DNA of 64,000 bases from an uncultured Nitrososphaerota archaeon (GCA_963838925.1 CAWISW010000001.1:347745-411744); one strand, 5' to 3'; shown: positions 24,234-42,164, counted from the stretch's first letter. Notes: generated from the letters alone by a model not told the origin. Made by a program: numbers and translations.

Positions 24234-24605
24234 ATGATAAGCGCTCCCAGGGGCCTCCTCAAGCTCGTCTCCCTACAGCTCTTCTCGGAGTCCTCCCTCT
24301 CGGGCGCGGAGCTCCAGGAGGAGATACGCAAGACCAGCGAGGGCGTCTGGAAGCCGGGGCCGGGCTCGATCTACTTCCTCCTCGACGAGCTGCGCAAGGG
24401 CGAGCTGATCGTCGAGCTCCCACACAAGGGAGGGACCATCAGGCGCTACGTCATCTCGAACAAGGGCAAGGCGGAGCTCACCAAGCTGAGCGGGAAGATC
24501 GACGAAGAGGTCAGGAGGCAGCTGAGGCTCCTCGCCTACTGCTGCGACCACACGTCGAACTCAAAGCTCGCCGACGGTCTGCGCAAGCTCTCTGAGGCGC
24601 GCTAG
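24234..24605 (+). CDS. PadR-family regulator
   Basis: WKPGPGSIYFLL..RRYVISNKG. Confidence 0.85.
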   Translation: MISAPRGLLKLVSLQLFSESSLSGAELQEEIRKTSEGVWKPGPGSIYFLLDELRKGELIVELPHKGGTIRRYVISNKGKAELTKLSGKIDEEVRRQLRLLAYCCDHTSNSKLADGLRKLSEAR

Positions 24606-27600
24606 CTCTTTGGCACTCTGCTCAACTTTGGCGTGAACCCGCGCCTCACCACGAAGACGTACGCGGCGCCTATGAAGACGACCAGCGTCGCCACGGCGAA
24701 CGTCCTGATGTCGGTGTAGTCGGTGGCGAAGCTCGCGTGCACCGTGCCCGGCGAAAAGATCGACACCGCTGTCTGCAGCTTGAGCGCCGAGGCGGACTCG
24801 ATCTGGGTGCCGGATACGCCAAGGGTCCAGCCTTGGAACATTATCTCCACCGTGCCCGGTATTGCGGTTAGGGTAACGTTGCGTCCAGGAGGCGGGTAGA
24901 TTGTCGCGTTCGCCCCTGCCTGGACCGTCCCGCTTATCGAACCGTACGAGTATGCCACCGACCCCTGGCCGTCGGTGGATATGTTGAGGCCGGGGAAGAA
25001 GATGGCGGTCTCGTTCGCGGCGCCTGTGACAAGCAGCGTCGGCGAGATCGTCGTGCCGTTGTACGAGAACGCGGTCGCTCCCTGCCAGTAGGCGAAGGCC
25101 CATTGCCTAGCGGTCGTCTCGTTCAGGACCACGGTCGACCCCTGGTCGTGCCACTCGTTCTGGGTCCCCTCGGCCCCGCCTGCTGGCGTGCTCACGCCCA
25201 CCTCCACGTAGAACTGGTGGGCGTACTGGACGTCGAGCTTGGTCGGCTGCGCGATTATGGCTGCGGTGGTCTGGTTTGACATCCAGCGCTCCCCGTGCGT
25301 GCCCGGAAGCAGGAGCGGGACCTCCCAGGTCGACCCGGAGTCCATCCAGAAGCCGGTCGCCGAAGGACCCAGTGGGGACAGCAGCGTCGCCCCTTCGGAC
25401 GTGTAGTTCAAGCTAGGCACGGGGGGCGAGCCTCCGGACCCCTGGACCGTGTAGTGGAGCGTGTCCAGGTACTGGTGGTAGTACATCAGGTCGCCGCTGA
25501 GAGGGGCCGAGGCGATGCCGGAGGGGTTCGTCTTCGTTATCCACTGCTCACTCGGGGACGAGCTGGGGAGAAGCGCGCTCGCGGCCCAGCTTGTGCCCGA
25601 GTCTAGCCAGAATGTCGTTTGGGTGGCGTTGAGCTGTGCGAGACCCTGAACTCCCAAGGAGGTGTAGTTCAAGCGAGGATTGCTGTATGCCCCTCCATCC
25701 AAGACGCCGAAGTTAAGAACGAACGCGTACTGGTGGTAGTAGAGCTCGGTCAGAGAACCGGCTTGGTTGATGACCCCTAACGGGCTTCCAGCGAACCAAC
25801 GCTCTACCGCGGAGGAGCCCACCAGAGGATTCGTGTAGTTGAACGAGGAGCCCGCGTCTACCCAGCTCTGGGACCCCCTTGCGGAGGCGCCGAATGACGT
25901 GAAGAGAACCGAGGGAGGTTGATAAGCTGTGCCACCTCCAATGACGCTGTAACCGAAGGTGATGAAGAACTGGTTGTAATACTGCAACGACACTGTCTGT
26001 CCAGCGGTCGCGGCACCATTATTGACCGAGCTGTCCCACCGTTCGCTAGACGTAGATCCCGCAAGGGCCGAAGGGACCGTCCAACTGGATCCTGAGTCCA
26101 GCCAAACTGAAGAGGCCGACCCGATCAGCGGAAGGTTGTCCGGTGCGCCGAAAGCGGTAAAGTTGAGTCGGGGGGTCGAGGGTGAAGTTGTAGAGCCGAT
26201 GAGGGAGTACTCGAATCCCTCGAGCACCTGCGAGTAGTAGCTCGACGTGTGCTGATTACCCCCTGCTACGTCTGTGAAGGCGTTCTGAGAGGTGGCCCAC
26301 CGTTGCGTCGGTGAGACCTGCAAGAGACCCAAGCCCGCCTGAGTGTTGTAGTCTGTCCAGCCTTGACACGAGAACGTTCCAGAGCCGGTGGTGACCGAGA
26401 TTGTGCAAATGGTCTGTCCGGCGCTGTCCAGCGTTGTGCCGTTGACGACGATCGAGCCAGGGGTGGTCCATGATGCCGGGCTCTTGGGGGATGCCTGGTA
26501 CGTGTTCTCGACCTGATAGTAGATGGTGGCGGAGAAGGTCTGGCAAGAGCTAGAAGAGCAGCTTCCGACTGTCAGGGAGTTCAAGCCGGCTGAGGAGAGG
26601 TATCTCGAGTTAGTCCCGGCCGGAGGAAGGGTGATGGTAATGGGCGAACACCCGGAGGACGCTTGGAAGTTGTAAGGTGTTCCGTTTGCCGGGATAGACG
26701 TCGGTGAGACCGAGCACCCTGAGAGGGAAACGGTGGTCGGAGGACCTGAGTTAGCCACTGTGATCTGTATCGTCTCGTTGACGTTTGCGGTTATTGAAAA
26801 CGTTCCGCTGCTAGCCACGTTGTTCGTGTCGCCGGAGTACACGGCGGTGATTGTGGCGGACTGTGTCGGAGTGTATGTTATCCCACACGAGGCGGATGAG
26901 AGGGTGCACGGGTTTGCCGAGAAGATGCCACCCTTGTCTGTCGATTGCCAAGTGATGATTCCAGTTGGCGAGTACCCAACGACCGTCGCGCTGCAGGTGC
27001 TAGGCTTGCCGACGAGGAGGGTCGCGGGGGAGCAAATCACGCTTGTCGTGCTCGTCGCGGGAGAGACGGTAAGGGTGGTGGAGCCTGAGCTTCCGATGTT
27101 ATTGGAATCGCCTGAGTACGTTGCCAATATTGTCGCGCCTCCTGCCCCGGTTGTCGAAACCGACACAAAGCACGTTCCGGATGCGAGGGTGCAAAATGTT
27201 GGCGAGGAGGCAAGAGACGTCGTCGCGGTGCCTGAGAACTGAGTGAAGGTCACAGTTCCAGTAGCGCCGTTGGGAGGGTAGCCAGACACGGCTGCAGTGC
27301 AGGTGGTCGGTGAAGGCGACCCTACAATCACCGTCGATGGCGCGCAACTGACAGCTGTGGTCGACGTCGCCTGATTCACCGTCAGGGTGAACGTTGCCAT
27401 CCCTGAGTTCGTCGGCGTCGCGCTGTCGGTAACAGTGACGGTCACGGAGAACGACCCGGACCCTACGCCGCTTGGGACGCACGTGATTGAAACCGAATTT
27501 GAACTACTGCAACCAGCAGGCAAGCCCGACCATGCATAGGTGTACGGTGTCGTCCCGCCCGTCGCTGGGGGCGTGGAAATGGTTGTGGACTGGCCCACGA

Positions 27601-27730
27601 CTATTGGGTTAGGCGCTGCCGAGGGCGAAACGGTCAAGCTCGCTGCATAGGCTGGCTTCGCGGCAAACAACAAGCCCAAAGCGATGAGTACGGTAAAGAC
27701 GAGAAGCGCACTCCCGTGCCCCTTTCTCAT
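24602..27730 (-). CDS. Large secreted Ser/Thr-rich surface protein (Ig-like repeats, C-terminal TM anchor)
   Basis: Signal peptide ..AYA; ATYSGD.NN..SS Ig repeats; W.D.G../ERW/YYHQY repeats; C-terminal TM followed by RR. Confidence 0.8.
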   Translation of the reverse strand: MRKGHGSALLVFTVLIALGLLFAAKPAYAASLTVSPSAAPNPIVVGQSTTISTPPATGGTTPYTYAWSGLPAGCSSSNSVSITCVPSGVGSGSFSVTVTVTDSATPTNSGMATFTLTVNQATSTTAVSCAPSTVIVGSPSPTTCTAAVSGYPPNGATGTVTFTQFSGTATTSLASSPTFCTLASGTCFVSVSTTGAGGATILATYSGDSNNIGSSGSTTLTVSPATSTTSVICSPATLLVGKPSTCSATVVGYSPTGIITWQSTDKGGIFSANPCTLSSASCGITYTPTQSATITAVYSGDTNNVASSGTFSITANVNETIQITVANSGPPTTVSLSGCSVSPTSIPANGTPYNFQASSGCSPITITLPPAGTNSRYLSSAGLNSLTVGSCSSSSCQTFSATIYYQVENTYQASPKSPASWTTPGSIVVNGTTLDSAGQTICTISVTTGSGTFSCQGWTDYNTQAGLGLLQVSPTQRWATSQNAFTDVAGGNQHTSSYYSQVLEGFEYSLIGSTTSPSTPRLNFTAFGAPDNLPLIGSASSVWLDSGSSWTVPSALAGSTSSERWDSSVNNGAATAGQTVSLQYYNQFFITFGYSVIGGGTAYQPPSVLFTSFGASARGSQSWVDAGSSFNYTNPLVGSSAVERWFAGSPLGVINQAGSLTELYYHQYAFVLNFGVLDGGAYSNPRLNYTSLGVQGLAQLNATQTTFWLDSGTSWAASALLPSSSPSEQWITKTNPSGIASAPLSGDLMYYHQYLDTLHYTVQGSGGSPPVPSLNYTSEGATLLSPLGPSATGFWMDSGSTWEVPLLLPGTHGERWMSNQTTAAIIAQPTKLDVQYAHQFYVEVGVSTPAGGAEGTQNEWHDQGSTVVLNETTARQWAFAYWQGATAFSYNGTTISPTLLVTGAANETAIFFPGLNISTDGQGSVAYSYGSISGTVQAGANATIYPPPGRNVTLTAIPGTVEIMFQGWTLGVSGTQIESASALKLQTAVSIFSPGTVHASFATDYTDIRTFAVATLVVFIGAAYVFVVRRGFTPKLSRVPKS

Positions 27731-28120: not shown

Positions 28121-28436
28121 ATGATTCGAAGGTCAAAGCTTGAAGTCTTCATGGACATCATGAAGGTGGTCGCAGAAGAGAGAGAGATGAAGCGCACGAG
28201 GATCATGTACAAGGCGAACCTCGCCTGGACCGTGCTCAACGATGCGCTCGACTCGATGGAGAAGAAGGGAATCCTCGAGAAGCAAGGAGACTCCCTCTGG
28301 CGTCGTCGTGACCCCAACCCCCGACGGTCTGAACCTCCTGAAGAGATTCCAAGAAGTGGAGTCAGTCTTCATGGAGCCGACCATCAGCGCGGAAGGGCTC
28401 ATCTACCCGACGCACAGAATGGAAATCCTGCGCTAA
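28121..28436 (+). pseudogene. HTH_45-like winged-HTH regulator with a +1 frameshift near 28280 (probably sequencing error)
   Basis: RRSKLEVFMDIM..TRIMYKANL..GILE continues in another frame as SKETPSGVVVTPTPDGLNLL. Confidence 0.7.
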
Positions 28437-28569
28437 ACACGCGCAAAAAGCCTCTCCGTGCGACCGTCTTCCTAGGTCCATGAGTGGGCCCGCGCTCAAG
28501 GGCGCTAGCTCACGGCCAAACGGATTCGAAGACGTTATATCCGCAGGCGCGGTCGTACCATCCCGTCTG

Positions 28570-29698: not shown

Positions 29699-30339
29699 GT
29701 CAGTCCACGTTTACGGTAATCACTTAGATAAACGTTTGCCGAACGATGAGACGAAGCAGTCATCTCGAGTAGCAAGGGGCCGTCGTTCGTTCGTCCTAGT
29801 TGATTTGCGGGACGGTGATGGCTTCGACTTCAGGATTGCGAAGCGATGGGAGGGATCGCGCCGACCCCTGAATGCTACTTGGCTTTGGTCGGGACCGACT
29901 CTGGAGTCGGCTTCTCTTCGAACGATATGGCGAGCTTCAAGTTGACGTTCTCCTTCGAGACAGCGATGACTTTCTCTACCACTGGGCTCCACCTGACATG
30001 CAATCATAGAATTACTTTAGGAATTTAAGCAGTGCCAGCAAATGCATAACGTAATGCGTGCGCGCTCATGAAGAATCTGAATCTAGATTCGCGGCACAGG
30101 TACCCGGTTCGGATGCGGTGCGGATTTCGACGTTCGTTGGTCAAACGGGGTCCGAAATTAACCCAAACATCAAATCGGGGCTGGTCTTATCATGCGGAAC
30201 GGAGACAAAGTAAATATCTCATCCCGCGCGATGCGACGCTTGGAAGCGGTCAGGAACGACAAAAGATGCTCCGAGGCGACACTTCCCTTTTTCGCAAACG
30301 CTAATATATTATATGGGTAATTTGACGGTGGACTCCTAG

Positions 30340-31431
30340 ATGGCAACTAACCTTACGAAGCTCATCGAAGCGATCAACCGCGTCGGCATCCAGAACGTGT
30401 CCTTGCTTTCGCGGATGACCGGGATGCCCACCGAGACGATCCGCTACACGATGAAGAAGAGGTTCCCGAACATGGGCCTCAACATCAGGACACCGTTGAA
30501 CCACAGCGCGATGGGGCTCGAGCGCTATTTCGTAAAGCTCAAGCTAACCGAGGCGGCGGAGGAGTCGCTCTCGTCGATAGTCCAGGGACTCTCTTCGAAG
30601 GCCTTCCTCACCTACTGGTGCGAGGCGCCCCTCGAGCGCAAGTACCTTTCCTTCTTCTCGGTCCCCGTGTCTTTGGTCGACGAGTTCACGGGATTCCTGG
30701 ACAGGCTCGTAAAGGACGGAGTCCTCGTCGAATACAACCCGGAGCGGCTCGAATGGTCAAGGCACCCCGAGCTGAAGAGCAGGTATTACGACTTCGCAAC
30801 GGGAGAGTGGTCCATCAACTGGGACAAGATCAAGAAGGCGGGAGAAGCGCCGCCCGCGCCAGACTACCCGGACGAGCCATCCGGGTCGCCCGCCATCGAC
30901 GTCATCGACACGCTCATCATCAAGGAACTCGAGCTAGACTCGTGGCGCAACATCGCAGAGATCGCGCGCAAGCTGAAGCTGAACGAGAGGACCGTGAGGT
31001 GGCACTACAGGAAGCACGTCGTGGACATCGCCCAGTCCAGCTATGTGAACTGGAAGCCGGTGACCCCGAAGGAATATGGGAAGGCCGTGGGACTGGTCCA
31101 CGAGTTCAAGGACATCTCGAAGGAGAGACTCGCCAAGGTCAGGGTGGTCTTCAACAACTTCCCCTTCCCATGGTTCGAGGGCGGACGAAAGGACGGATAC
31201 TACCAGGTGCAGTCCGCCATCCCGGGGCAGTACTACATGGAATCCTTGCGCTTCCTCAATGCGAGCCTGGCCGGCGTGGTGGAAGACTGGAAGGCATGGA
31301 CCGTCGACGTCGCGTCCACGCTCTGGTACACAGTGCCTTACGAGAACTTCGATGACAAGAGGGGCTGGTTCTTTGACAAGGAATCCGCGCTAGAGGCCGT
31401 GCTGCCTCAGAAGATGAAAATAAAGCAGTGA
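30340..31431 (+). CDS. Tandem-domain Lrp/AsnC-like HTH regulator
   Basis: Two HTH motifs (SLLSRMTGMPTETIRY; IAEIARKLKLNERTVRWH), each followed by a putative effector domain. Confidence 0.7.
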   Translation: MATNLTKLIEAINRVGIQNVSLLSRMTGMPTETIRYTMKKRFPNMGLNIRTPLNHSAMGLERYFVKLKLTEAAEESLSSIVQGLSSKAFLTYWCEAPLERKYLSFFSVPVSLVDEFTGFLDRLVKDGVLVEYNPERLEWSRHPELKSRYYDFATGEWSINWDKIKKAGEAPPAPDYPDEPSGSPAIDVIDTLIIKELELDSWRNIAEIARKLKLNERTVRWHYRKHVVDIAQSSYVNWKPVTPKEYGKAVGLVHEFKDISKERLAKVRVVFNNFPFPWFEGGRKDGYYQVQSAIPGQYYMESLRFLNASLAGVVEDWKAWTVDVASTLWYTVPYENFDDKRGWFFDKESALEAVLPQKMKIKQ

Positions 31432-31435
31432 GGGC

Positions 31436-31666
31436 CTAGTTAGGCCCCCCAGAACCGCCAGGGTCTCCGCCCGATATCATGTGGAGGTTAGGCCCGCCAG
31501 ACCCTCCCGGATCCCCACTGGTGATCACGTGAAGGTTTGGTCCCCCAGACCCTCCGGGATCTCCGTTGAAGATTCCGTGCACTCCATGCGCCATGAGGGC
31601 GAACGCGACGAACGTCACGGCGAACGGAGCGACCTTGATCAGCTTGCTCAGAAGTCGACTATTCAT
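31436..31666 (-). CDS. Small secreted peptide precursor with three GDPGGSGGPN repeats
   Basis: Basic plus hydrophobic leader; three identical 10-aa cores encoded with only synonymous differences. Confidence 0.8.
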   Translation of the reverse strand: MNSRLLSKLIKVAPFAVTFVAFALMAHGVHGIFNGDPGGSGGPNLHVITSGDPGGSGGPNLHMISGGDPGGSGGPN

Positions 31667-31859
31667 TGGACGAATGGCGTGGGGATTACTATTACCGCAC
31701 TATGCAGGCCCGAGTTACTAATCCAGATACTGGATTCACTGGCCGCGAATCTACACGATTAAGGATGTCCAGTTTTCATGCGATTGGGCAGGTCCGCGGG
31801 GTCTGCGTTACCGCATTCATAACCGCTATATACCATTATCATGAATCCGGAAACCAGAT

Positions 31860-32339
31860 TTGGAGATGCCTGCCGAAAGAGGGACGCGGCCCAGCCACGA
31901 CGAGCTCGAGGCGATCCTCAGGGAAGGGATTCAGGACGGACTCCGCAGTGTCCTCGGTCAGAGCGGGCTCCAGATGGTGCTGAAGGAGTGCCCGCTCGAG
32001 CTCATCACCGCCGAGCCGGCGCGATTCCACGAGTTCCTGAAGGGCATATTCATGGAGGGCGGGGCGTTGGTGATTGAGCGAGAGATAGGCAGGAGGCTGC
32101 TTCAAAGACTGGGCGACGAGTTCGACCCGGCGCGGCACTCACGACATAGGTGGTTGGTTGCTGCCACCACAAGGAATAACGGGTCTGCGAGGGTGTCCAA
32201 GGAAGAGAGGGAAGTCCTTAGGCGGTTCCTCTCGCCAGAACCGCTTCCCAAGGAACGCATCGGCAGGGCGAACGTCGGGGCAGCACCGATCGAGGTCACC
32301 GCGGCCAGCTTCGCGCGCGCGTTCAAAAAGGGAACATAG
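31860..32339 (+). CDS. Small cytoplasmic protein resembling thaumarchaeal signalling output domains (NitrOD5-like)
   Basis: I..GL.SVLG.SG..VL..P..F...L..IF..GA..IE pattern. Confidence 0.5.
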   Translation: MEMPAERGTRPSHDELEAILREGIQDGLRSVLGQSGLQMVLKECPLELITAEPARFHEFLKGIFMEGGALVIEREIGRRLLQRLGDEFDPARHSRHRWLVAATTRNNGSARVSKEEREVLRRFLSPEPLPKERIGRANVGAAPIEVTAASFARAFKKGT

Positions 32340-33189: not shown

Positions 33190-34563
33190 TTGACCGACCT
33201 CGCAACGACCCTAGGCGTTACCGGCGCCTTCGTCATCGAGGTGGGGGCTGTCCTTCTTGCGCTCAGGAACGTCCTCGGACAGAAGCTGACCAGGGTCGTC
33301 GACACGAAGGCCGTGCTCGTGTTCGCGCACGTCTTCATCCTCGCGATCTTCGCGCTGGAATACATGAGGTTCTTCCTGTCGTCCTCCGTAGGCTTCATGG
33401 ACTTCTACACCTTCGGAGTGGTCTCGCTGATCCTCTGGATTGGGATCCTCCTCACGTCCCTTGCCTACATCGTCTTCTTCCGTCCGAGCGAGCGCAGCTT
33501 TGGGCAGAGGGTCGTGGCTCTCGTCACGAGCAGGCTCTTTCCCTTCGGCCTCATGCTAGTGCTCTTCGTGGCGTACATCCTGGCGGTGGACGGGTTCCTG
33601 ATAGCCACGAGCCCGTTCTCCTTTGTCACTCTCCGCGACCTGACGGGGCAATCTGGCACGGTGCCCCTCTTCAACGGGACGCTGAAGGCTCTGGTGCTCT
33701 CGCTCTACCTTGTCTTCCTCCTCTTCCCCTCGCTGCAATTCGTGCTTGCGATCCGCTCGATTTCGGACCCTCAGACGAAGCGGGCCGTCAGCGTGCTGAT
33801 CTGCGGCTGGGACATTATCGCGCTGGACGGGCTCTTGATCTACGGGTTCCTGCCGTCCCTCGGCGTCAACGCGTTAGGCCCAGGGCAGCTGATAGCGGGG
33901 CTCGTGCTCGGCGTCACCGGGTACTCGATGCGCAAGAGCTCCGTCCTCGAGAAGATGTTCGAGCAGGTCGAGGCCAAGTCCCCTCGAACGGAGCCGGTTA
34001 TTAATGGGGTTCTAGCGAGCGAGCGTCCCGTGTCAAGCTACAAGGGGACGATGCTCTTCGAGGCCGACCCGTCGGCGAACTACGAGCGAGCGGTGAAGGA
34101 CTTTGCCCTTGAGATGATCGCTAGCGGGCGACTCGTGTTCGCGTTCACGTCGAGGGGGAGCCCCGTCTACCTACTGCTCAAGGACATCCCCGGCCTGCGC
34201 TTCTTCATCCTCTCTGAGAGTTCCTATCCCAAGCCAAGCGGAGGCTCCCTGGAGGTGATGGTCCCGCGCAGCGACTACGCCGTACTCCTGAACGTCATGG
34301 ACGAGACCGTGACGCACAGCCCTGAGAAGCCGAAGGCGATTATCTTCGACAACATCTCGTCGCTCATCCTCGACGCGGGGTTCCAGGAGTGCTACAAGTT
34401 CCTGAGGCAGGTGAACGAGATACTCAGCCACGGCGACGTGGTCTCAATCTTCCTCGTGCTCTTGAAGGCGCACGACGACAAGACGCTGAACATCGTCAAG
34501 AACCTGTACTCGGGACACCTGATATTCGACGCGACCGGACTTCGCGTCCTGAAGCAGGGCTGA
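33190..34563 (+). CDS. 7-TM membrane protein with a C-terminal DUF835/KaiC-like inactive ATPase domain
   Basis: N-terminal TM bundle; C-terminal AIIFDNISSLI..G...YKFL (Walker B-like), no Walker A. Confidence 0.65.
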   Translation: MTDLATTLGVTGAFVIEVGAVLLALRNVLGQKLTRVVDTKAVLVFAHVFILAIFALEYMRFFLSSSVGFMDFYTFGVVSLILWIGILLTSLAYIVFFRPSERSFGQRVVALVTSRLFPFGLMLVLFVAYILAVDGFLIATSPFSFVTLRDLTGQSGTVPLFNGTLKALVLSLYLVFLLFPSLQFVLAIRSISDPQTKRAVSVLICGWDIIALDGLLIYGFLPSLGVNALGPGQLIAGLVLGVTGYSMRKSSVLEKMFEQVEAKSPRTEPVINGVLASERPVSSYKGTMLFEADPSANYERAVKDFALEMIASGRLVFAFTSRGSPVYLLLKDIPGLRFFILSESSYPKPSGGSLEVMVPRSDYAVLLNVMDETVTHSPEKPKAIIFDNISSLILDAGFQECYKFLRQVNEILSHGDVVSIFLVLLKAHDDKTLNIVKNLYSGHLIFDATGLRVLKQG

Positions 34564-35671: not shown

Positions 35672-38600
35672 TTGAGGGGAAATCCAGCGGTCCTACCCCC
35701 GGTCGCCACGCTCCTGGCTCTGGCGTTGCTTCTCCTGATGGGGTCAACCGGCGCGTCGGCGGCGCATGCGTTTGAGTTTGGGAACGGAGGGTTCGGAGGG
35801 AGCGGAATGCAGGTTCCTCTGACAGCAAGCTACTCCACCATCGGTGGTGGCGGGAGTCAGGTTGTGGACGCACTGACTTTTGTGAACAACGGCGTACAGC
35901 AGACGGTGGCTCTTACCACGACCCCGACGATATACATGGTCGACTCCGGGACCCAATGGAGCGCGCAGACCATCCTAAACGGTTCGACCAGCACCGAGAG
36001 GTGGATCACCTCGCAGGATGTCGCTGGAACGATAGTTGCGCCATTTGCAGTCGTATTCACATACTATCACCAGTACCTCGTGACATTCAACTTCAACGTC
36101 ACCAACGGTGGGGCTGGGTTCTCCAGCCCATCCGTCAGATTTGTTCAAATGGGCGGGATTGTCTCCTCACCCGCTCCAGAGGTGGTGTGGGTCGACGCTT
36201 CGTCAACCTATTCGTATGACTCGCAACTACCTGGATTCTCTTCGACCGAGAGATGGGCCTCCCAGACCGTGGGAACCGGGACGATAGCCAGCTCATCGAC
36301 TGTGCTCGTGACGTATTACCACCAATACCTCGTGTCCTCCAGCTATTCCATTGTTGGCGGTGGAAGCCCCACGCCTCCTTCCTTGTCGAGCACTGCTTTC
36401 AAGGCCCCGGTGCAATTTGCCCTGACTGGCAGCACTCAGAGCTCCTGGTTCGATGCCGGTGCTCCCTACTCCTGGAGTCCAACGCTGACAGGGAAGTCGA
36501 CCGAGACTTGGGTGGGGACCGTCATCCTGCAGATGCCTTCTGGAAACGTGCTTTCGACCGACAACAACGGGACCGTCATTAGCGCGCTCTCGATTACCCC
36601 TGCCTATCACCACCAGTTTCTCGTGAGCGTCGACTTCGCATTCGTAGGCGGCACTCCGACCGGCCTCACCCCTCCGGCATTCACCTACGAATACTTCGGC
36701 TCCCCGACGGCCGTGACGTCGAACACCGTCGTGTGGGTCGATAGCGGCACCCAGTACACCCTCCCTGAGGCGGTCTGCTGCACGAGTTCGCCTGGTCTGG
36801 AGAGATGGGAGCTAAACAATTCCACGACAGGGGTCATCTCCTCCGCTACGACGATTAGCTCGACCTACTTCCACCAGTACATGGAGTTGTTTTCCTACTC
36901 GTTCCTGGGGCAGCCTCCGCCCTCCCCTTGGACGCCGCCCGAACTCAGCTACCTCGCCGCAGGGAGCGCCCAGCAGGTGGCGCTCCTCCAGACTCCGCTA
37001 GGTGTGTGGGCCGACGCTAACTCGGCGTATTCCGTCACCAGCACAATCTCATCCTCGAGCCAGAGCGAGAGATGGTTCGCCCAATCTTCCGTAGGGAGCA
37101 TTCAGTCGACGCAGGGCAGCCCAATCATCGTCCTCTACAACCAGCAATACCTCATCACCATAGTCGGAGGAGGTCTCCCCACTCAGTGGGTGAACGCGGG
37201 GAACAACACGACGCTCATGACTCCCGGAGTGTACGGACGTTCGGCTGGAAGCGGATACAGAGTGGTCTCCTACCAGATAGATTACGGTGCCGTGGTAAAC
37301 ATAACCCAACCCTCGGATATCGTGTCGATCCAACTATCGATCAACGGCCCTCACACCATCGCATTCCAGTCAGTAAGGCAGTTCCAGGTTTCCCTTGACT
37401 CAGGGGCCACCGGGGCACTCTCGTCAATAACCCCTCCCACCGTGTCGGGAGACAACTACTGGTATGACTCTGAATCGCCCATACGGGTAGTACTCAACGG
37501 CGACTGGGGACGGGCGAACGGGGTCGGGCAGCGCATCTCAACTATCTCTGCCACTGGACAAGCTACCATTCAGGTCAACGGGATAGGCCTGGTGCAAGCC
37601 TTTGCCACCCCGTCTCTCCAGACGCCCATCACGATCACCACCACGAGCGCCACCCAGTACGAGGTGGTCCTGAACAAGGGGGCGATGGCTGCGTTCGCCT
37701 CCATCTCTCCCCCGTCGACCTTCCCCAACGACACCTTCTGGTACGACGCGGGCTCACCAGCCGTCACCGTTGTGCTCGACGGCGTCTACTCGCGCGTCGG
37801 CGGGACGGGCTTCAGGGTCTCGTCCTGGGCGGTGGACTCAGGTCCGGTGACCCAGGTCGCGTCGACCGGCACCATCACCATAGTCACCAAAGCGATGACC
37901 TCGGCGCACTTCCTGAACGCGTCGACCGTCACCCAATACCAGATCACGCTCGACAAGCCAGGAAGCGCGGCCCTGGCCTCCATGACCAACCCGTCGATTC
38001 CGCTCGACTCCGGCTGGTACGATGCATCCACGCCGGTCGGGGTGATCATGAACGGTGCATGGAGCCGCTCCTCAGGCGCAGGCCAGAGGCTGGCGGGCTT
38101 CTCCCTGAACGGTGGGCCCGAGGTCAGCGTGGCTTCCACGGGCCTTGTAACAGTCCTCAACTCGACGAAGCTGTCATCGTCCGAGGCCATCACGACCTCC
38201 ACGGTGACCCAGTACCTCGTGACGCTCGACGGCGGCGCCACCTCCGCGCTCAGCTCGATCACCTCGACCCCGATTCCCAAGGACGGGTACTGGTTCGACA
38301 GCGGGACGCCGGTGAGCGTGTCCCTGAACGGCGTCTGGGCACGCACGTCCACGACAGGCACAAGGCTGACGTCCTATTCCGTGAACCTTGGAGCCTCCAC
38401 CACTGTCCTCTCCTTAGGTCACGTTCAGGCGCTCTCCCTTCCAGGGATATCGGGACCTGAATCGATCTCAACCAAGACGGTGTCCCAGTATCGCCTCACC
38501 TCGACGCCCATCGCCTGGGCATCGCTGACCAACTCGACGCTCCCAGGAGACGCAGCAGGGTGGTTCGACTCGGGGACAGCCGTGAAGGCCGTCTTCAACA

Positions 38601-39637
38601 ACGTGTGGGGCCAGAACTCGACCGGCTCGAGGGACGACGTGGTGAGCTACACGGTCGACAACGGCGCCAAGACCAGCGTCACGCGCTCAGGGACTGGGAC
38701 CTTCGCGGTAGCCCTCACGATGTCGGCATCCCACACCATCGCCATCGCATCGGTCACGCAGTACATCCTCGGGGTCGTGGGCCCCGGTCAGGTGACGGCG
38801 AGCCCGCCCTCGCCGACAGGGGACTCGTACTTCGACTCGGGCTCGAAGGTCACCTTCACCGTACCGCGCGTCTGGAACGTAACCTCGAGCGCTGGGCAGA
38901 GAGCGCTGCTCGTCTCCTATTCGCTCAACGGTGGGACCCCGGTCGCAGTAGCACCCTCGACAAGCTCCGCCAGCTTCACGGTGCCCGCGGTGACCTTCAC
39001 CGGGTCCCAGCTGCTCGTCCTCAGCGCCCTCGACCAGTATCAGGTGACGTTCCAGTTCTTTGACGCCCACGGAGCGAACCCCGTCACGCCCAGCGGCGTA
39101 CAGATTGGCGTGGGGAACGCCACGGTGGACGTCCAGGGCCAGTCCGCTTGGCTGGCGAACGGGACGTCCTTCAGCCTGATCAACGTTTCATGGGAAGGGG
39201 CCAGCGTGGGTCCGACGCCCCCTCCGACGTACGAGGTCAAGGCCGCCCCTCTCAAAGTCACAATCGAGACTCGGGTGTACCCCGCCTCGTTGAAGGCAGT
39301 CGACCTCTTCGGACTCCCAGTCTCAGGCGCGCAGGTCTCGATGACGCTTGCGAACGGGACGGTGCTCACAGGGACCACCAAGGGAGACGGCACCTTCGCC
39401 GTCCCGATGATACCGCTTGGGACGTTCACCGCCAAGGTCTCCAGCCTCGGGACCAGCGCCCAGGTGGTGGGGAGCGCCTCCTCGCCCGCGGTCGCACAGG
39501 CCAAGGTGGCCTTCAGCCTCGTCTCGCTCATCGTGGTGGTGGCGATAGTCGTCGGGGCCGGGACTGCGGGGGTCTTTCTGCTGAGATGGTCCAGGAGCAA
39601 GAAGGGGTCAGGCGGAGCGGTGTCCGAACAAAAGTGA
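35672..39637 (+). CDS. Giant secreted repeat surface protein with C-terminal TM anchor
   Basis: Signal peptide; many W.D.G/ERW/YYHQY and TQY.V.L..GW(Y/F)D repeats; C-terminal TM. Confidence 0.8.
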   Translation: MRGNPAVLPPVATLLALALLLLMGSTGASAAHAFEFGNGGFGGSGMQVPLTASYSTIGGGGSQVVDALTFVNNGVQQTVALTTTPTIYMVDSGTQWSAQTILNGSTSTERWITSQDVAGTIVAPFAVVFTYYHQYLVTFNFNVTNGGAGFSSPSVRFVQMGGIVSSPAPEVVWVDASSTYSYDSQLPGFSSTERWASQTVGTGTIASSSTVLVTYYHQYLVSSSYSIVGGGSPTPPSLSSTAFKAPVQFALTGSTQSSWFDAGAPYSWSPTLTGKSTETWVGTVILQMPSGNVLSTDNNGTVISALSITPAYHHQFLVSVDFAFVGGTPTGLTPPAFTYEYFGSPTAVTSNTVVWVDSGTQYTLPEAVCCTSSPGLERWELNNSTTGVISSATTISSTYFHQYMELFSYSFLGQPPPSPWTPPELSYLAAGSAQQVALLQTPLGVWADANSAYSVTSTISSSSQSERWFAQSSVGSIQSTQGSPIIVLYNQQYLITIVGGGLPTQWVNAGNNTTLMTPGVYGRSAGSGYRVVSYQIDYGAVVNITQPSDIVSIQLSINGPHTIAFQSVRQFQVSLDSGATGALSSITPPTVSGDNYWYDSESPIRVVLNGDWGRANGVGQRISTISATGQATIQVNGIGLVQAFATPSLQTPITITTTSATQYEVVLNKGAMAAFASISPPSTFPNDTFWYDAGSPAVTVVLDGVYSRVGGTGFRVSSWAVDSGPVTQVASTGTITIVTKAMTSAHFLNASTVTQYQITLDKPGSAALASMTNPSIPLDSGWYDASTPVGVIMNGAWSRSSGAGQRLAGFSLNGGPEVSVASTGLVTVLNSTKLSSSEAITTSTVTQYLVTLDGGATSALSSITSTPIPKDGYWFDSGTPVSVSLNGVWARTSTTGTRLTSYSVNLGASTTVLSLGHVQALSLPGISGPESISTKTVSQYRLTSTPIAWASLTNSTLPGDAAGWFDSGTAVKAVFNNVWGQNSTGSRDDVVSYTVDNGAKTSVTRSGTGTFAVALTMSASHTIAIASVTQYILGVVGPGQVTASPPSPTGDSYFDSGSKVTFTVPRVWNVTSSAGQRALLVSYSLNGGTPVAVAPSTSSASFTVPAVTFTGSQLLVLSALDQYQVTFQFFDAHGANPVTPSGVQIGVGNATVDVQGQSAWLANGTSFSLINVSWEGASVGPTPPPTYEVKAAPLKVTIETRVYPASLKAVDLFGLPVSGAQVSMTLANGTVLTGTTKGDGTFAVPMIPLGTFTAKVSSLGTSAQVVGSASSPAVAQAKVAFSLVSLIVVVAIVVGAGTAGVFLLRWSRSKKGSGGAVSEQK

Positions 39638-39683: not shown

Positions 39684-42164
39684 ATGAAGGACAGAGCGAG
39701 GGGAGGGGCTGCACTTGCCCTTGTCGCGTGCTCCTTGCTGGTCCTCTCTGGTCTCGCCTACCCTCACGCGAGCGCAGCTTCGACCTCTACGACAACCACG
39801 ACAACCTCCTCCGCGGCCGCCCCCGCGCAGGGGTCGACGCCCGAAGCGCTCTTCATCTCTGTGATACCGCCGAAGCTGCCCGCGGACGGCGGGACATACC
39901 CGGCCATAGTCGTCTCCCTCCAGAGCTCTGCGGGGAAGGCGTCTCTCGCCCTCAACGACACCGTGGTCTTCCTGACCTCGTCGCAGGTCGGCGTGGGAAC
40001 GGTCTCGAGCCAAGTCACGATACCAAGGGGAGCCGGCTTCGCCATCGCAAACTTCACGGCGGGCACGACCCCGGGCACCACGTCGATCTCGGCGTCCTCT
40101 GCGGGCCTCAGCTCGGCCTCGGGCCAGGTGACCACGGTGACCCCCAGCGGGCTCGCGTCCCACCTGAAGATAATCCCGGTCCCCGGTTCCCAGCTCGTCA
40201 ACCCGACGGGCCAGGGCACAGTCCTCGTCGAGACCCTGGACTCGGCAGGTCTCCCCGCAAAGACGAGCTCCGCGGTCACAGTGGCTCTCTCGTCCTCTAA
40301 CAACAACGTGGTCAACCTCCCGGACGACACGCTCACCGTCGCGAGCGGCTCCGTGCTCTCCTCCGTCCCCTATGACGTCGGGGTCTCCCCGGGCACGGCG
40401 ACGATAACGGGGTCCGCATCCGGGTACAACTCCGGCGCGGGCACGGTGACCGTCCAAGGTCCCTCACCCTTCGCCATCTCGATATTCGCGGAGCCCGACC
40501 CCCTGCCGACCTCGGCCTCTGGGCGCCTCGTCGTCACCCTCACCGACCCCGAGGGCAACCCCGCCCGGGCGCCCTCGCCTATCACCGTGGCGATCGCCTC
40601 GTCCAACACGACCGTGGTCTCCTCTGACCAGTCAGCGACGATACCCGCCGGCGAGATCTACGCCGTGGCCTCCTTCACGTCGGGCGCGGCCCCCGGGACG
40701 GCGAACCTGACCGCCTCCGCGCAAGGCCTGGCCTCCGACTTCGCCGTGGTCAGCGTGGTCAAGCCCTCCCAGCCCGTCAAGATCAGGCTCATCACGGCCC
40801 CCAACCCCGTCCTGGCCGACGAGGGCTCCTACGACTCGGTAATGGTGGCCCTCACCGACGCAGCAGGGGACCCGGCCGTCGCCTCCTCGAGCATAACGGT
40901 CACCCTCTCGTCCTCCAACGACAACGTCGGGACAATCGGCGGGAGCATCAACATCCCCGCGGGTTCCACCTACGCGGTGGCCTCCTTCGCCTCCACGTTC
41001 TTCGTCGGGAGCACCTCCATCACCGCGCTAGCGCAGAACCTCCAGTCCGCGACCGCGACCATGAGTAGCTACGGTCCTATCCCCGCCAAGGTGGTCGTCC
41101 AAGCGCTCCCCTCGAACCTGCCCGCCGACGGCGGCTCCTACTCAGCCCTCGAGGTGATGGTCGAGGACGCCAACGGGCTTCCGGCCGTAGCGCCTGTGGG
41201 CATCCCTGTCCAGCTCGCCAGCTCGAGCACCAACATAGCCATGGTGAACTCGACCGTCGTCATCGCCGCGGGCCAGAGCTACCTCCTCACCGACGTCGAG
41301 ACCACCATCTCGCCGGGGACGGCAAACATCACCGCCACCTCCTCTGGCTTCCCATCTTCTTCCACAGGATTCACCACGACGAGCCCCGCGCCCTCGCAGC
41401 TGGGGTTCTACATCGCCCCCTCCAGCGGAATCCAGTCCCTAGGGCGGGGCGGGGACGCGGTCATCGCGGTCCAGCTCCAGGACTCGACCTCCTCTCCTGC
41501 GCGCGCCAGGCAGGACACGCAGATCGTCGTGACCAGCTCCAACAGCAGCGTCATCTCAAAGCCGATCCAGCTCGACATCCCCGCGGGAGCGGACTATGCC
41601 TCGGCCCTGCTCAACACGACCTCGCCTGGGTCTAGCGTCCTTACCGCGTCCACCAGCGGCCTCGCCTCTGCGACCGCCAGCTTCACCGAGCTATCCGTCC
41701 CGGTCTCGATCACGCTCACCAGCTCCGTGCCGGTCATCGCGATAGGCGGGGTCGCGTCGCTCCAACTCCAGCTCCAGGTCATGGGCTCGCCGCTCGCCGG
41801 CGCCAACGTCACCTTCCAAGCCACCTCAGGCGAGGTCAGCCCGGCGACAGGGGTCACGGACTCCTCCGGTCAGCTCAGCAGCACGTTCATCGGGCAGCAG
41901 AACGGGGTCTCCACCATCACGGCGACGGTGAGCGACCCACTCATCGGCAACGGGACCGCCGGCACGAACGTCCTCATCACCCTACCAGGCGCGGCAGGAG
42001 CGGGGACGACAACGCACGGGGGCCTGGGCCTTCTCGGGACGCTTCTGCCAGTAGTCCTGGTCGTCGTTGTGATCGCCATCATCGCCTTCGGCGTGAGGAG
42101 GATAGTCAAGGGCAGAAGGGCTACCGCAGAGGAAGTCGAGGAGAAGGGCGCCGAGGGCTCCTAG
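39684..42164 (+). CDS. Ig-like (invasin/Big_1-type) repeat surface protein
   Basis: Repeated LPADG.S, V.L.SS, PGTA.ITAS units; GVTDSSGQ; C-terminal TM. Confidence 0.78.
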   Translation: MKDRARGGAALALVACSLLVLSGLAYPHASAASTSTTTTTTSSAAAPAQGSTPEALFISVIPPKLPADGGTYPAIVVSLQSSAGKASLALNDTVVFLTSSQVGVGTVSSQVTIPRGAGFAIANFTAGTTPGTTSISASSAGLSSASGQVTTVTPSGLASHLKIIPVPGSQLVNPTGQGTVLVETLDSAGLPAKTSSAVTVALSSSNNNVVNLPDDTLTVASGSVLSSVPYDVGVSPGTATITGSASGYNSGAGTVTVQGPSPFAISIFAEPDPLPTSASGRLVVTLTDPEGNPARAPSPITVAIASSNTTVVSSDQSATIPAGEIYAVASFTSGAAPGTANLTASAQGLASDFAVVSVVKPSQPVKIRLITAPNPVLADEGSYDSVMVALTDAAGDPAVASSSITVTLSSSNDNVGTIGGSINIPAGSTYAVASFASTFFVGSTSITALAQNLQSATATMSSYGPIPAKVVVQALPSNLPADGGSYSALEVMVEDANGLPAVAPVGIPVQLASSSTNIAMVNSTVVIAAGQSYLLTDVETTISPGTANITATSSGFPSSSTGFTTTSPAPSQLGFYIAPSSGIQSLGRGGDAVIAVQLQDSTSSPARARQDTQIVVTSSNSSVISKPIQLDIPAGADYASALLNTTSPGSSVLTASTSGLASATASFTELSVPVSITLTSSVPVIAIGGVASLQLQLQVMGSPLAGANVTFQATSGEVSPATGVTDSSGQLSSTFIGQQNGVSTITATVSDPLIGNGTAGTNVLITLPGAAGAGTTTHGGLGLLGTLLPVVLVVVVIAIIAFGVRRIVKGRRATAEEVEEKGAEGS

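Follow-up and report, generated by a model that had tools for sequence, protein, structure and literature searches.

In bacterial peptide-regulator systems of the Rgg/SHP type, and in RRNPP systems at large, the gene of a cytoplasmic HTH protein has as its immediate neighbour a short gene for a pro-peptide with charged start and hydrophobic body, several paralogous pairs occur per genome, and the conserved, presumably active part of the peptide is C-terminal and includes an acidic residue. A convergent orientation to rgg is known for some SHP genes. Systems of the Rgg/SHP type further employ a membrane protease for maturation and an oligopeptide permease for re-import of the peptide (PMC7564271). 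In Rap-Phr systems, some Phr pre-peptides carry repeated copies of the autoinducer, which are identical in some genes (Even-Tov et al. 2016, PMC5199041). Tandem copies behind a leader also characterise the fungal alpha-factor/KEP precursors, which belong to eukaryotic systems with a G-protein-coupled receptor, and the multi-core RiPP precursors of the cyanobactin and dikaritin type. To our knowledge, Archaea have no known pheromone system based on ribosomal peptides, and a literature search with poor coverage of subscription journals yielded none.

Here we describe a locus that, judged from its sequence, may represent the first archaeal signalling cassette based on a peptide. It lies in a 64-kb window (the whole stretch of DNA that was analysed) of an uncultured archaeon, whose genome (G000, 1.84 Mb in three contigs) belongs to a genus of Gagatemarchaeum-type, non-ammonia-oxidising Nitrososphaerota. 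The gene order, the paralogous pairs and the C-terminal conservation, acidic residue included, given above for Rgg/SHP and RRNPP systems recur at the locus and its relatives. As in Rap-Phr, a putative secretion signal is followed by several putative mature peptide copies whose sequence diversifies between close relatives; unlike the Phr pentapeptides with their TPR receptor, the peptide here would be a decapeptide core within a 16-aa unit, its neighbour is of another protein family and the host is an archaeon.

The first-pass annotation had proposed a 76-aa ORF composed of a leader and three GDPGGSGGPN units, and translation of the region bore this out (Table 1), the ORF lying on the minus strand, which the annotation had not specified. 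The core codons it had listed are correct as well: the three cores differ from one another at 5, 6 and 6 of 10 codons, every difference being synonymous. Tandem Repeats Finder reported no DNA repeat at the peptide gene, because the DNA copies have diverged, in the cores by synonymous changes at 5-6 of 10 codons and in the spacers at the majority of positions. A repeat that is present in the peptide and not in the DNA rules out both chance and a recent DNA duplication. The GDPGGSGGPN motif occurs at this single locus of the genome, and the peptide gene matched no family in Pfam or NCBIfam.

Table 1. Positions of the peptide gene, its parts, its neighbours and its paralogues (window numbering; L089, L090 and L092 lie outside the window).
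Feature	Position	Strand	Basis or remark
Peptide precursor ORF, 76 aa + stop	31436..31666	minus	ATG start at 31666, TAG stop 31438-31436
Leader, aa 1-28: MNSRLLSKLIK, hydrophobic stretch, AHG	31583..31666	minus	alignments and model
Unit 1: spacer VHGIFN + core GDPGGSGGPN	31535..31582 (core 31535-31564)	minus	ORF translation
Unit 2: spacer LHVITS + core GDPGGSGGPN	31487..31534 (core 31487-31516)	minus	ORF translation
Unit 3: spacer LHMISG + core GDPGGSGGPN	31439..31486 (core 31439-31468)	minus	stop codon right after core
Putative promoter block, ~41 nt: TTAGTAAC, 6-9 nt, CTG[CA]ATAGTG, 3 nt, TAATA	31689..31729	minus	15/15 class-A loci
T-rich run CTTTATTTTCATCTTCT	31409..31425	minus	begins 11 nt past the stop, inside the last codons of the opposite-strand regulator
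Tandem Lrp/AsnC-like protein, 363 aa	30340..31431	plus	convergent with peptide gene, 4 nt between stop codons
159-aa protein	31860..32339	plus	divergent from peptide gene, variable neighbour
457-aa membrane protein, C-terminal DUF835/DUF7090-like domain	33190..34563	plus	Pfam/NCBIfam scans, comparison of relatives
Further single-core peptide gene, G000, L089	C1:345641-345778	plus	
Further single-core peptide gene, G000, L090	C2:255993-256124	plus	
Further single-core peptide gene, G000, L092	C3:164472-164600	minus	

All genomes compared are MAGs. A protein search of 41 related genomes revealed full-length multi-core orthologues in 6 of the 22 other genomes of the genus (E 1e-11 to 1e-28), each with two or three units, the best peptide match outside the genus having an E value of 0.006; a word-indexed database search with the peptide matched four small proteins. 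Single-core orthologues occupy the corresponding site in six more genomes of the genus, so that the gene is conserved at a syntenic site in 12 other genomes.

Between the core copies within a gene (15 pairs from seven multi-copy genes), 85 codon differences are synonymous and none is nonsynonymous, whereas the spacers of these seven genes show 12 synonymous and 64 nonsynonymous differences. This supports the earlier proposal that the peptide, rather than the DNA repeat, is the target of selection. Counted conservatively, the cores record at least 53 separate codon changes, all of them silent and nine of them in G000 alone; at P(synonymous) = 0.3 the neutral probability of the silent-only pattern is ~2e-28, the events not all being independent across related genomes. 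The divergence at four-fold sites is 63% between copies of the same gene, 67% between genomes and 74% in random draws. Since these sites are near saturation, the copies are old as DNA and have seen no recent gene conversion, which was rejected on this ground as the source of core identity.

The cores continue after GDPGG with SGGPN, NGGPN, NTGPN, PGAPN or PGEPN, further variants being present in database proteins. They vary between proteins at positions 4, 6-8 and 10 and are identical within each gene that has at least two intact cores; the motif is gone from the broken third unit in G012, which contains a frameshift, and from the decayed first unit in G008. Identical products within a gene and different ones between lineages are as predicted for a precursor that holds one specific peptide in several copies. 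By its conservation and this pattern of codon change, the 76-aa ORF is a real gene under selection on its cores.

To place the gene in a wider family, a profile of 30 peptides was searched against 1.84 billion representative proteins. It gave 89 hits (E up to 1e-3), all of 38-98 aa, which removes the concern raised in the first-pass annotation that homologues might be Gly-rich linkers of longer proteins. Where the sources give a name to the family proteins, it is "hypothetical protein". Most members are single-core. Exact internal repeats were found in 12 of 93 database proteins, all but one of the GDPxG type, the other case being P0072 with two copies of LEGGGNAD, a different peptide class. 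In 9 of the 12 multi-core database proteins, no residue follows the last listed repeat; two have a 13-residue tail that is one further full copy, and the one true exception is P0080 (6 residues). A 63-aa ORF in G011 (L035, 2776-2967, minus strand) contains five DPIGGFGPSY copies with two residues between copies and nearly identical DNA repeats; it has no leader, lies 187 nt from a regulator paralogue and may be a cytoplasmic or degenerate multi-core relative. As GDPxG, the doubled LEGGGNAD and the fivefold DPIGGFGPSY fall in separate branches, the C-terminal motif was multiplied independently at least three times.

In six further genomes of the genus, closer relatives of the regulator (43-70% identity) have a convergent single-core ORF of 44-48 aa downstream, two of these genomes having two such loci. 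The single-core ORFs share the leader type and the His-Gly end and terminate, for instance, in GDPIGPGAPT or LDGIGPGPPG. By comparison with them, the repeated unit of 16 aa corresponds to everything that followed the leader in a single-core ancestor. With the single-core form found elsewhere and the unit equal to its whole post-leader region, the multi-core form is an expansion within one subclade.

When the 38,133 stop-to-stop ORFs of G000 were searched with a profile built without sequences of that genome, exactly four peptides were recovered (E 9e-16 to 3e-7); the hit ranked after them had an E value of 0.32. Two of the three further peptide genes, these two of 40-45 aa, are convergent with regulator paralogues; the remaining one lies upstream of a 343-aa membrane protein of no recognised kind, without an adjoining regulator paralogue, and a stand-alone Lrp/AsnC ligand-binding-domain protein is encoded 2.4 kb from it. 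The peptide family is undescribed and unnamed: no account of it, or of an archaeal peptide-regulator cassette, was found in a literature search in which subscription journals were poorly covered, an earlier description thus being possible.

The protein encoded tail-to-tail with the peptide gene was modelled with AlphaFold at a pLDDT of 90.2, revealing two consecutive units of a winged HTH and a ferredoxin-like RAM domain; the RAM-type fold, beta-alpha-beta-beta-alpha-beta, is present twice in one chain. The architecture of Lrp/AsnC proteins, an N-terminal winged HTH and a C-terminal RAM domain, is thus found here in duplicate. Foldseek returned NirDL (4ch7, E 4e-9) as the best match, followed by archaeal and bacterial Lrp/AsnC regulators, and the Pfam hit of HTH_AsnC type reached 24.7 bits, below the cut-off of 27. 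NirDL, a fused double Lrp-like siroheme decarboxylase, likewise has two winged HTH plus RAM-type units per chain; the 363-aa protein stands apart from it and from Lrp/AsnC at 9-17% sequence identity, and its family has many invariant Trp residues. As the best structural match is an enzyme, the role of a transcription factor is read from the HTH motifs: two of these, together with a basic second recognition helix in the model, suggest a regulator that would bind DNA. The family has 1-9 matches per genome in 22 of the 23 genomes of the genus, and the searches run reported no known Lrp-type protein that pairs with a peptide gene.

The pairing of the two genes was followed through genus, class and phylum. 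An orthologue of the 363-aa protein (56-71% identity) is encoded tail-to-tail with the peptide gene in each of the six multi-core relatives, and in G000 a convergent peptide gene is present at 3 of the 4 regulator paralogues. When peptide genes within 250 nt of the regulator 3' end were counted, the arrangement known from RRNPP systems, a pro-peptide gene adjoining the receptor gene, was found, convergent and as a rule 4-50 nt apart, at 21 of 29 distinct regulator-family loci of the genus (one peptide gene being frameshifted and one leaderless; eight loci lack one), against a background of 3.3%, i.e. 26 of 787 gene-like G000 ORFs with a convergent 28-80-aa ORF of hydrophobic start near their stop. 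Among regulator loci from MAG records, 13 of 14 have a peptide gene.

Sampling across the class revealed the regulator family in 37 of 301 genomes, with no match in the order's two largest families (0/180 and 0/39 genomes), which we take to be ammonia oxidisers. At 17 of 29 class-level loci there is a convergent 35-48-aa ORF with a charged start, a hydrophobic stretch, a Gly and a short tail such as PLGQRIGGPEVI, and at three more a small secreted ORF precedes the regulator gene on the same strand. A genus-only profile detected four of the class-level peptides at E <1e-3 and ranked the others high among its weak hits. In the rest of the phylum, 68 of 301 sampled genomes encode the regulator family, and about 7 of 19 inspected loci have a convergent small hydrophobic ORF.

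When the peptide classes were placed on a 58-row tree of the regulators, they coincided with its clades. The window belongs to class A, which comprises 15 rows with a support of 100; the sister clade of class A, with 8 rows, is without a peptide. As the peptide classes follow the regulator clades, the pairing is old and co-diversified, with clade-level losses; these comparisons of gene order and descent show an old and specific link between the peptide genes and the regulator family. At L086-L088 (G062, G066 and G074; family f19), which belong to the most distant clade of the regulator, a small secreted ORF ending in a GGGDE[VI]D-type motif was observed upstream on the same strand, which is possibly a rearranged version of the pairing.

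Set against RRNPP systems, the receptor candidate differs in being tandem Lrp/AsnC-like instead of HTH plus TPR, its model matching no TPR proteins; the host is an archaeon, the peptide tail is Gly/Pro-rich and not hydrophobic, and the circuit here is a proposed one. Because of the receptor fold, the cassette would work like an RRNPP system without being a member of that family; it is best regarded as analogous to, and not homologous with, Rgg/SHP and Rap/Phr. Protease and permease-type genes of the kind used by Rgg/SHP systems are also present, G000 encoding M50 site-2 proteases and an Opp-type binding protein, which are enabling genes and not specific ones. The host family has been described as non-ammonia-oxidising archaea of acidic soils with secreted peptidases and several oligopeptide ABC transporters (PMC10640624); the portion of that text available mentions neither these peptides nor the Lrp-type regulators.

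The promoter block of the peptide gene is conserved while the flanking non-coding DNA is unalignable and the regulators are down to 43% identical. TAATAG is located at 31689-31694, 22 nt ahead of the ATG, and TAATA is found 22-25 nt ahead of the ATG across the class-A loci. By its sequence and spacing, TAATA could serve as an archaeal TATA box for an mRNA that is leaderless or nearly so, and the words further upstream are a candidate operator. The combination of words occurs once in G000; the motif was found neither upstream of the regulator gene nor elsewhere in that genome, and the paralogous peptide genes have TATA-like boxes of their own. Upstream of the regulator gene (30230-30339), a separate and unrelated conserved promoter was observed in most orthologous loci, consisting of TTTTC[GA]CAA, ~10 nt and TTATATAGGTAAT. 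A perfect 7-nt inverted repeat, AATCCAG TAT CTGGATT (31720-31736, minus strand), overlaps the 5' edge of the promoter block in this genome only. The T-rich run past the stop codon may be an archaeal terminator, its conservation being confounded by the coding sequence opposite.

The leader was analysed for signals of export and processing. It carries R4, K8 and K11, followed by ~15 hydrophobic residues and A-H-G. Gly28 is present in at least 90% of the 30 alignment rows and is nearly invariant across the peptide family; the residue at -3 to this Gly is A, T, S or G in about 46-47 of the 60 family members scored, and the Gly is usually followed by Leu, Val or Ile and then His. From these features, the leader is probably a Sec-type signal peptide or a membrane anchor. 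The near-invariant Gly and the small -3 residues would fit a signal-peptidase site, an uncleaved anchor being possible, and the hydrophobic stretch is of sufficient length for one. In the wider peptide family, the N-terminal region (e.g. MTLDEKIRYGM) is conserved far above ordinary signal peptides, and in some peptide classes it is without net positive charge, which together hints at a function of its own for that region.

Several known processing routes were considered and rejected. A type IV pilin-like (class III) signal has a short charged start and a cleavage site with Gly, Ala or Ser ahead of the hydrophobic stretch; here the conserved Gly comes after that stretch and not before it. A double-glycine leader was rejected as there is no GG motif at the leader end, and Kex2-type processing as there is no dibasic pair anywhere after residue 11. 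The resemblance to alpha-factor/KEP precursors claimed in the first-pass annotation accordingly stands for the layout of signal peptide, tandem cores and variable spacers and falls for the processing: without dibasic Kex2 sites between the units (spacers LHVITS and LHMISG), it is architectural only. No protease motif is conserved N-terminal to the cores, the preceding residue being N, S, G, A, H, F or L. A cut or a cyclisation after Asn by a legumain-type protease is a conceivable route for the cores.

The properties of the leader also accommodate an uncleaved single-pass membrane micro-protein (N in, C out) that modulates or tethers the regulator or a membrane sensor and whose tail is a multivalent surface element, an explanation we regard as rather unlikely. 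It is favoured by the predicted structure, in which the leader is one helix of 27 residues (3-29) and the tail has no predicted fold (pLDDT <50), by the strong conservation of the N-terminal cytoplasmic motif across classes, which is unusual for a signal peptide, by tails of just 12-16 residues in many family members and by membrane proteins with sensor-like domains near the genes of the multi-core subclade. These sensor-like neighbours, however, are not conserved beyond that subclade, and identical cores with drifting spacers are better predicted by a precursor than by a tethered tail. Family members, with the true exception of P0080, stop right after the core, and the combination of Gly and small -3 residues would fit cleavage by a signal peptidase.

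Analysis of the neighbourhood showed the regulator to be the sole constant neighbour across the loci. Among the six multi-core relatives, three have the gene of the 159-aa protein next to the peptide gene, and it was also seen in G017 and G020; the protein matched no Pfam or NCBIfam family, and its protein atlas matches are archaeal hypothetical proteins only, plus a weak NitrOD5 lead. The DUF835/DUF7090-like C-terminal domain is encoded near the peptide gene of each of the six multi-core relatives and is missing beside single-core ones, and a weak MASE3-like membrane protein is also among the variable neighbours. Pfam and NCBIfam scans of the neighbours otherwise yielded HTH proteins, MscL, PadR, ACT, weakly sensor-like membrane proteins and Ig-like giants. 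Three large flanking proteins, of 1042, 1321 and 826 aa (24602-27730, minus strand; 35672-39637 and 39684-42164, plus strand), contain Big_3_5 Ig-like or CarboxypepD_reg-like domains, are syntenic in all six relatives and are probably surface proteins. A 120-aa HTH_45 ORF (28121-28483, plus strand) is in one frame here and ends 4 nt into the MscL gene; with tblastn, its match in each of the six relatives is split into two pieces that overlap and differ in frame (residues 1-55 at 95-100% identity; 42/48-120 at 41-63%). Gene fusion, a frameshift or a pair of overlapping genes could account for this.

The first-pass annotation had seen no modifying enzyme nearby, and the scans likewise recognised none within about 5 kb. 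This bears on the idea that the gene encodes a multi-core modified or antimicrobial peptide precursor of the RiPP or archaeocin type, its production controlled by the regulator and its tailoring enzymes encoded elsewhere, which we consider improbable. A leader followed by repeated identical cores is indeed a known RiPP layout, and head-to-tail cyclisation, an idea taken from plant cyclic peptides, would be chemically conceivable in a core with Gly at its start and Asn or Asp at its end. Yet neither a dedicated transporter nor an immunity gene was recognised within the same distance, no tailoring gene is conserved across the loci, and the cores have no Cys and no conserved modifiable residue, Ser, Thr and Asn being at variable positions. 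Several paralogous regulator-peptide pairs per genome, moreover, resemble signalling cassettes more than toxin clusters.

The His residues at the unit starts raise the question of a secreted metal-binding peptide, for Cu or Ni, with units starting X-His after leader removal and a His-rich leader end (AHGVHG). Several units begin with LH, VH or IH, and 34 of 60 scored family members have a His after the conserved Gly and one residue; as this His is gone in several units (LG, LR, FR, FQ), the invariant core is His-free and metal-transport neighbours are missing, the explanation is very unlikely. Even less is to be said for a type I toxin-like small hydrophobic peptide under antisense transcription from the convergent gene: the ORF is small and hydrophobic and the 3' end of the convergent gene abuts it, but multi-copy Gly/Pro-rich tails under strict peptide selection are foreign to such toxins, the partner comes from one protein family and is not an RNA gene, and Rfam gave no family match anywhere in the window. 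A chance ORF or assembly artefact, for which only the exclusive use of MAGs could be adduced, can practically be dismissed in view of the conservation in many independent assemblies, the synonymous-only pattern in frame, the conserved promoter and the 89 database clusters.

Signalling is the best supported reading, and with it we infer export, a signal-peptide cut, cuts between the units, binding by the regulator and a role between cells. We give an even chance to the proposition that the gene encodes a pro-peptide with several copies of a species-specific signal, which is tied to the regulator encoded beside it. Under this model, the 28-aa N-terminal part would carry the C-terminal part across the membrane and would probably be cut off after the Gly, the exported part thus consisting of three copies of the 16-aa mature region, the selected end of which would be the C-terminal decapeptide GDPGGSGGPN. 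Tripling would raise the yield of one species-specific peptide and would require a cut after each Pro-Asn. The peptide would be the signal half of a two-gene cassette, with the convergent tandem Lrp/AsnC-like regulator as the other half, which would sense the peptide either directly after re-import or indirectly and act on the 41-nt promoter block of the peptide gene, resulting in autoinduction.

This signal model is weakened by the N-terminal conservation, the long hydrophobic stretch, the leaderless L035, the regulator-less peptide of G000 and the peptide-less clade, as well as by the lack of a conserved residue before the cores and by an enzyme being the best structural match of the regulator. 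A larger claim is made tentatively and held to be somewhat doubtful, namely that these loci are the first case of peptide-based, pherotype-diversifying cell-to-cell signalling in Archaea, in which exported pro-peptides, each paired with its own tandem Lrp/AsnC-type receptor-regulator, were duplicated and co-diversified. With the same reserve, such signalling may extend over the non-ammonia-oxidising Nitrososphaeria and other Thermoproteota, with the C-terminal ~10-mer as the signal and the multi-copy precursors as amplifiers.

The locus offers a testable candidate, comprising a defined peptide, a confidently modelled candidate receptor and a 41-nt promoter element, for which natural specificity variants exist with Ser, Asn, Pro or Thr at core position 6 and more changes at positions 7 and 8. 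Even if signalling proved to be wrong, the cores would be an unusually clean case of concerted evolution at the peptide level without homogenisation of the DNA, seen in core identity within a gene, saturated synonymous divergence and core differences from species to species. If the signalling model is true, it would assign a function to a regulator family that is widespread and unannotated, as well as to some 90 clusters of hypothetical micro-proteins from abundant, uncultured archaea of soil and peat.
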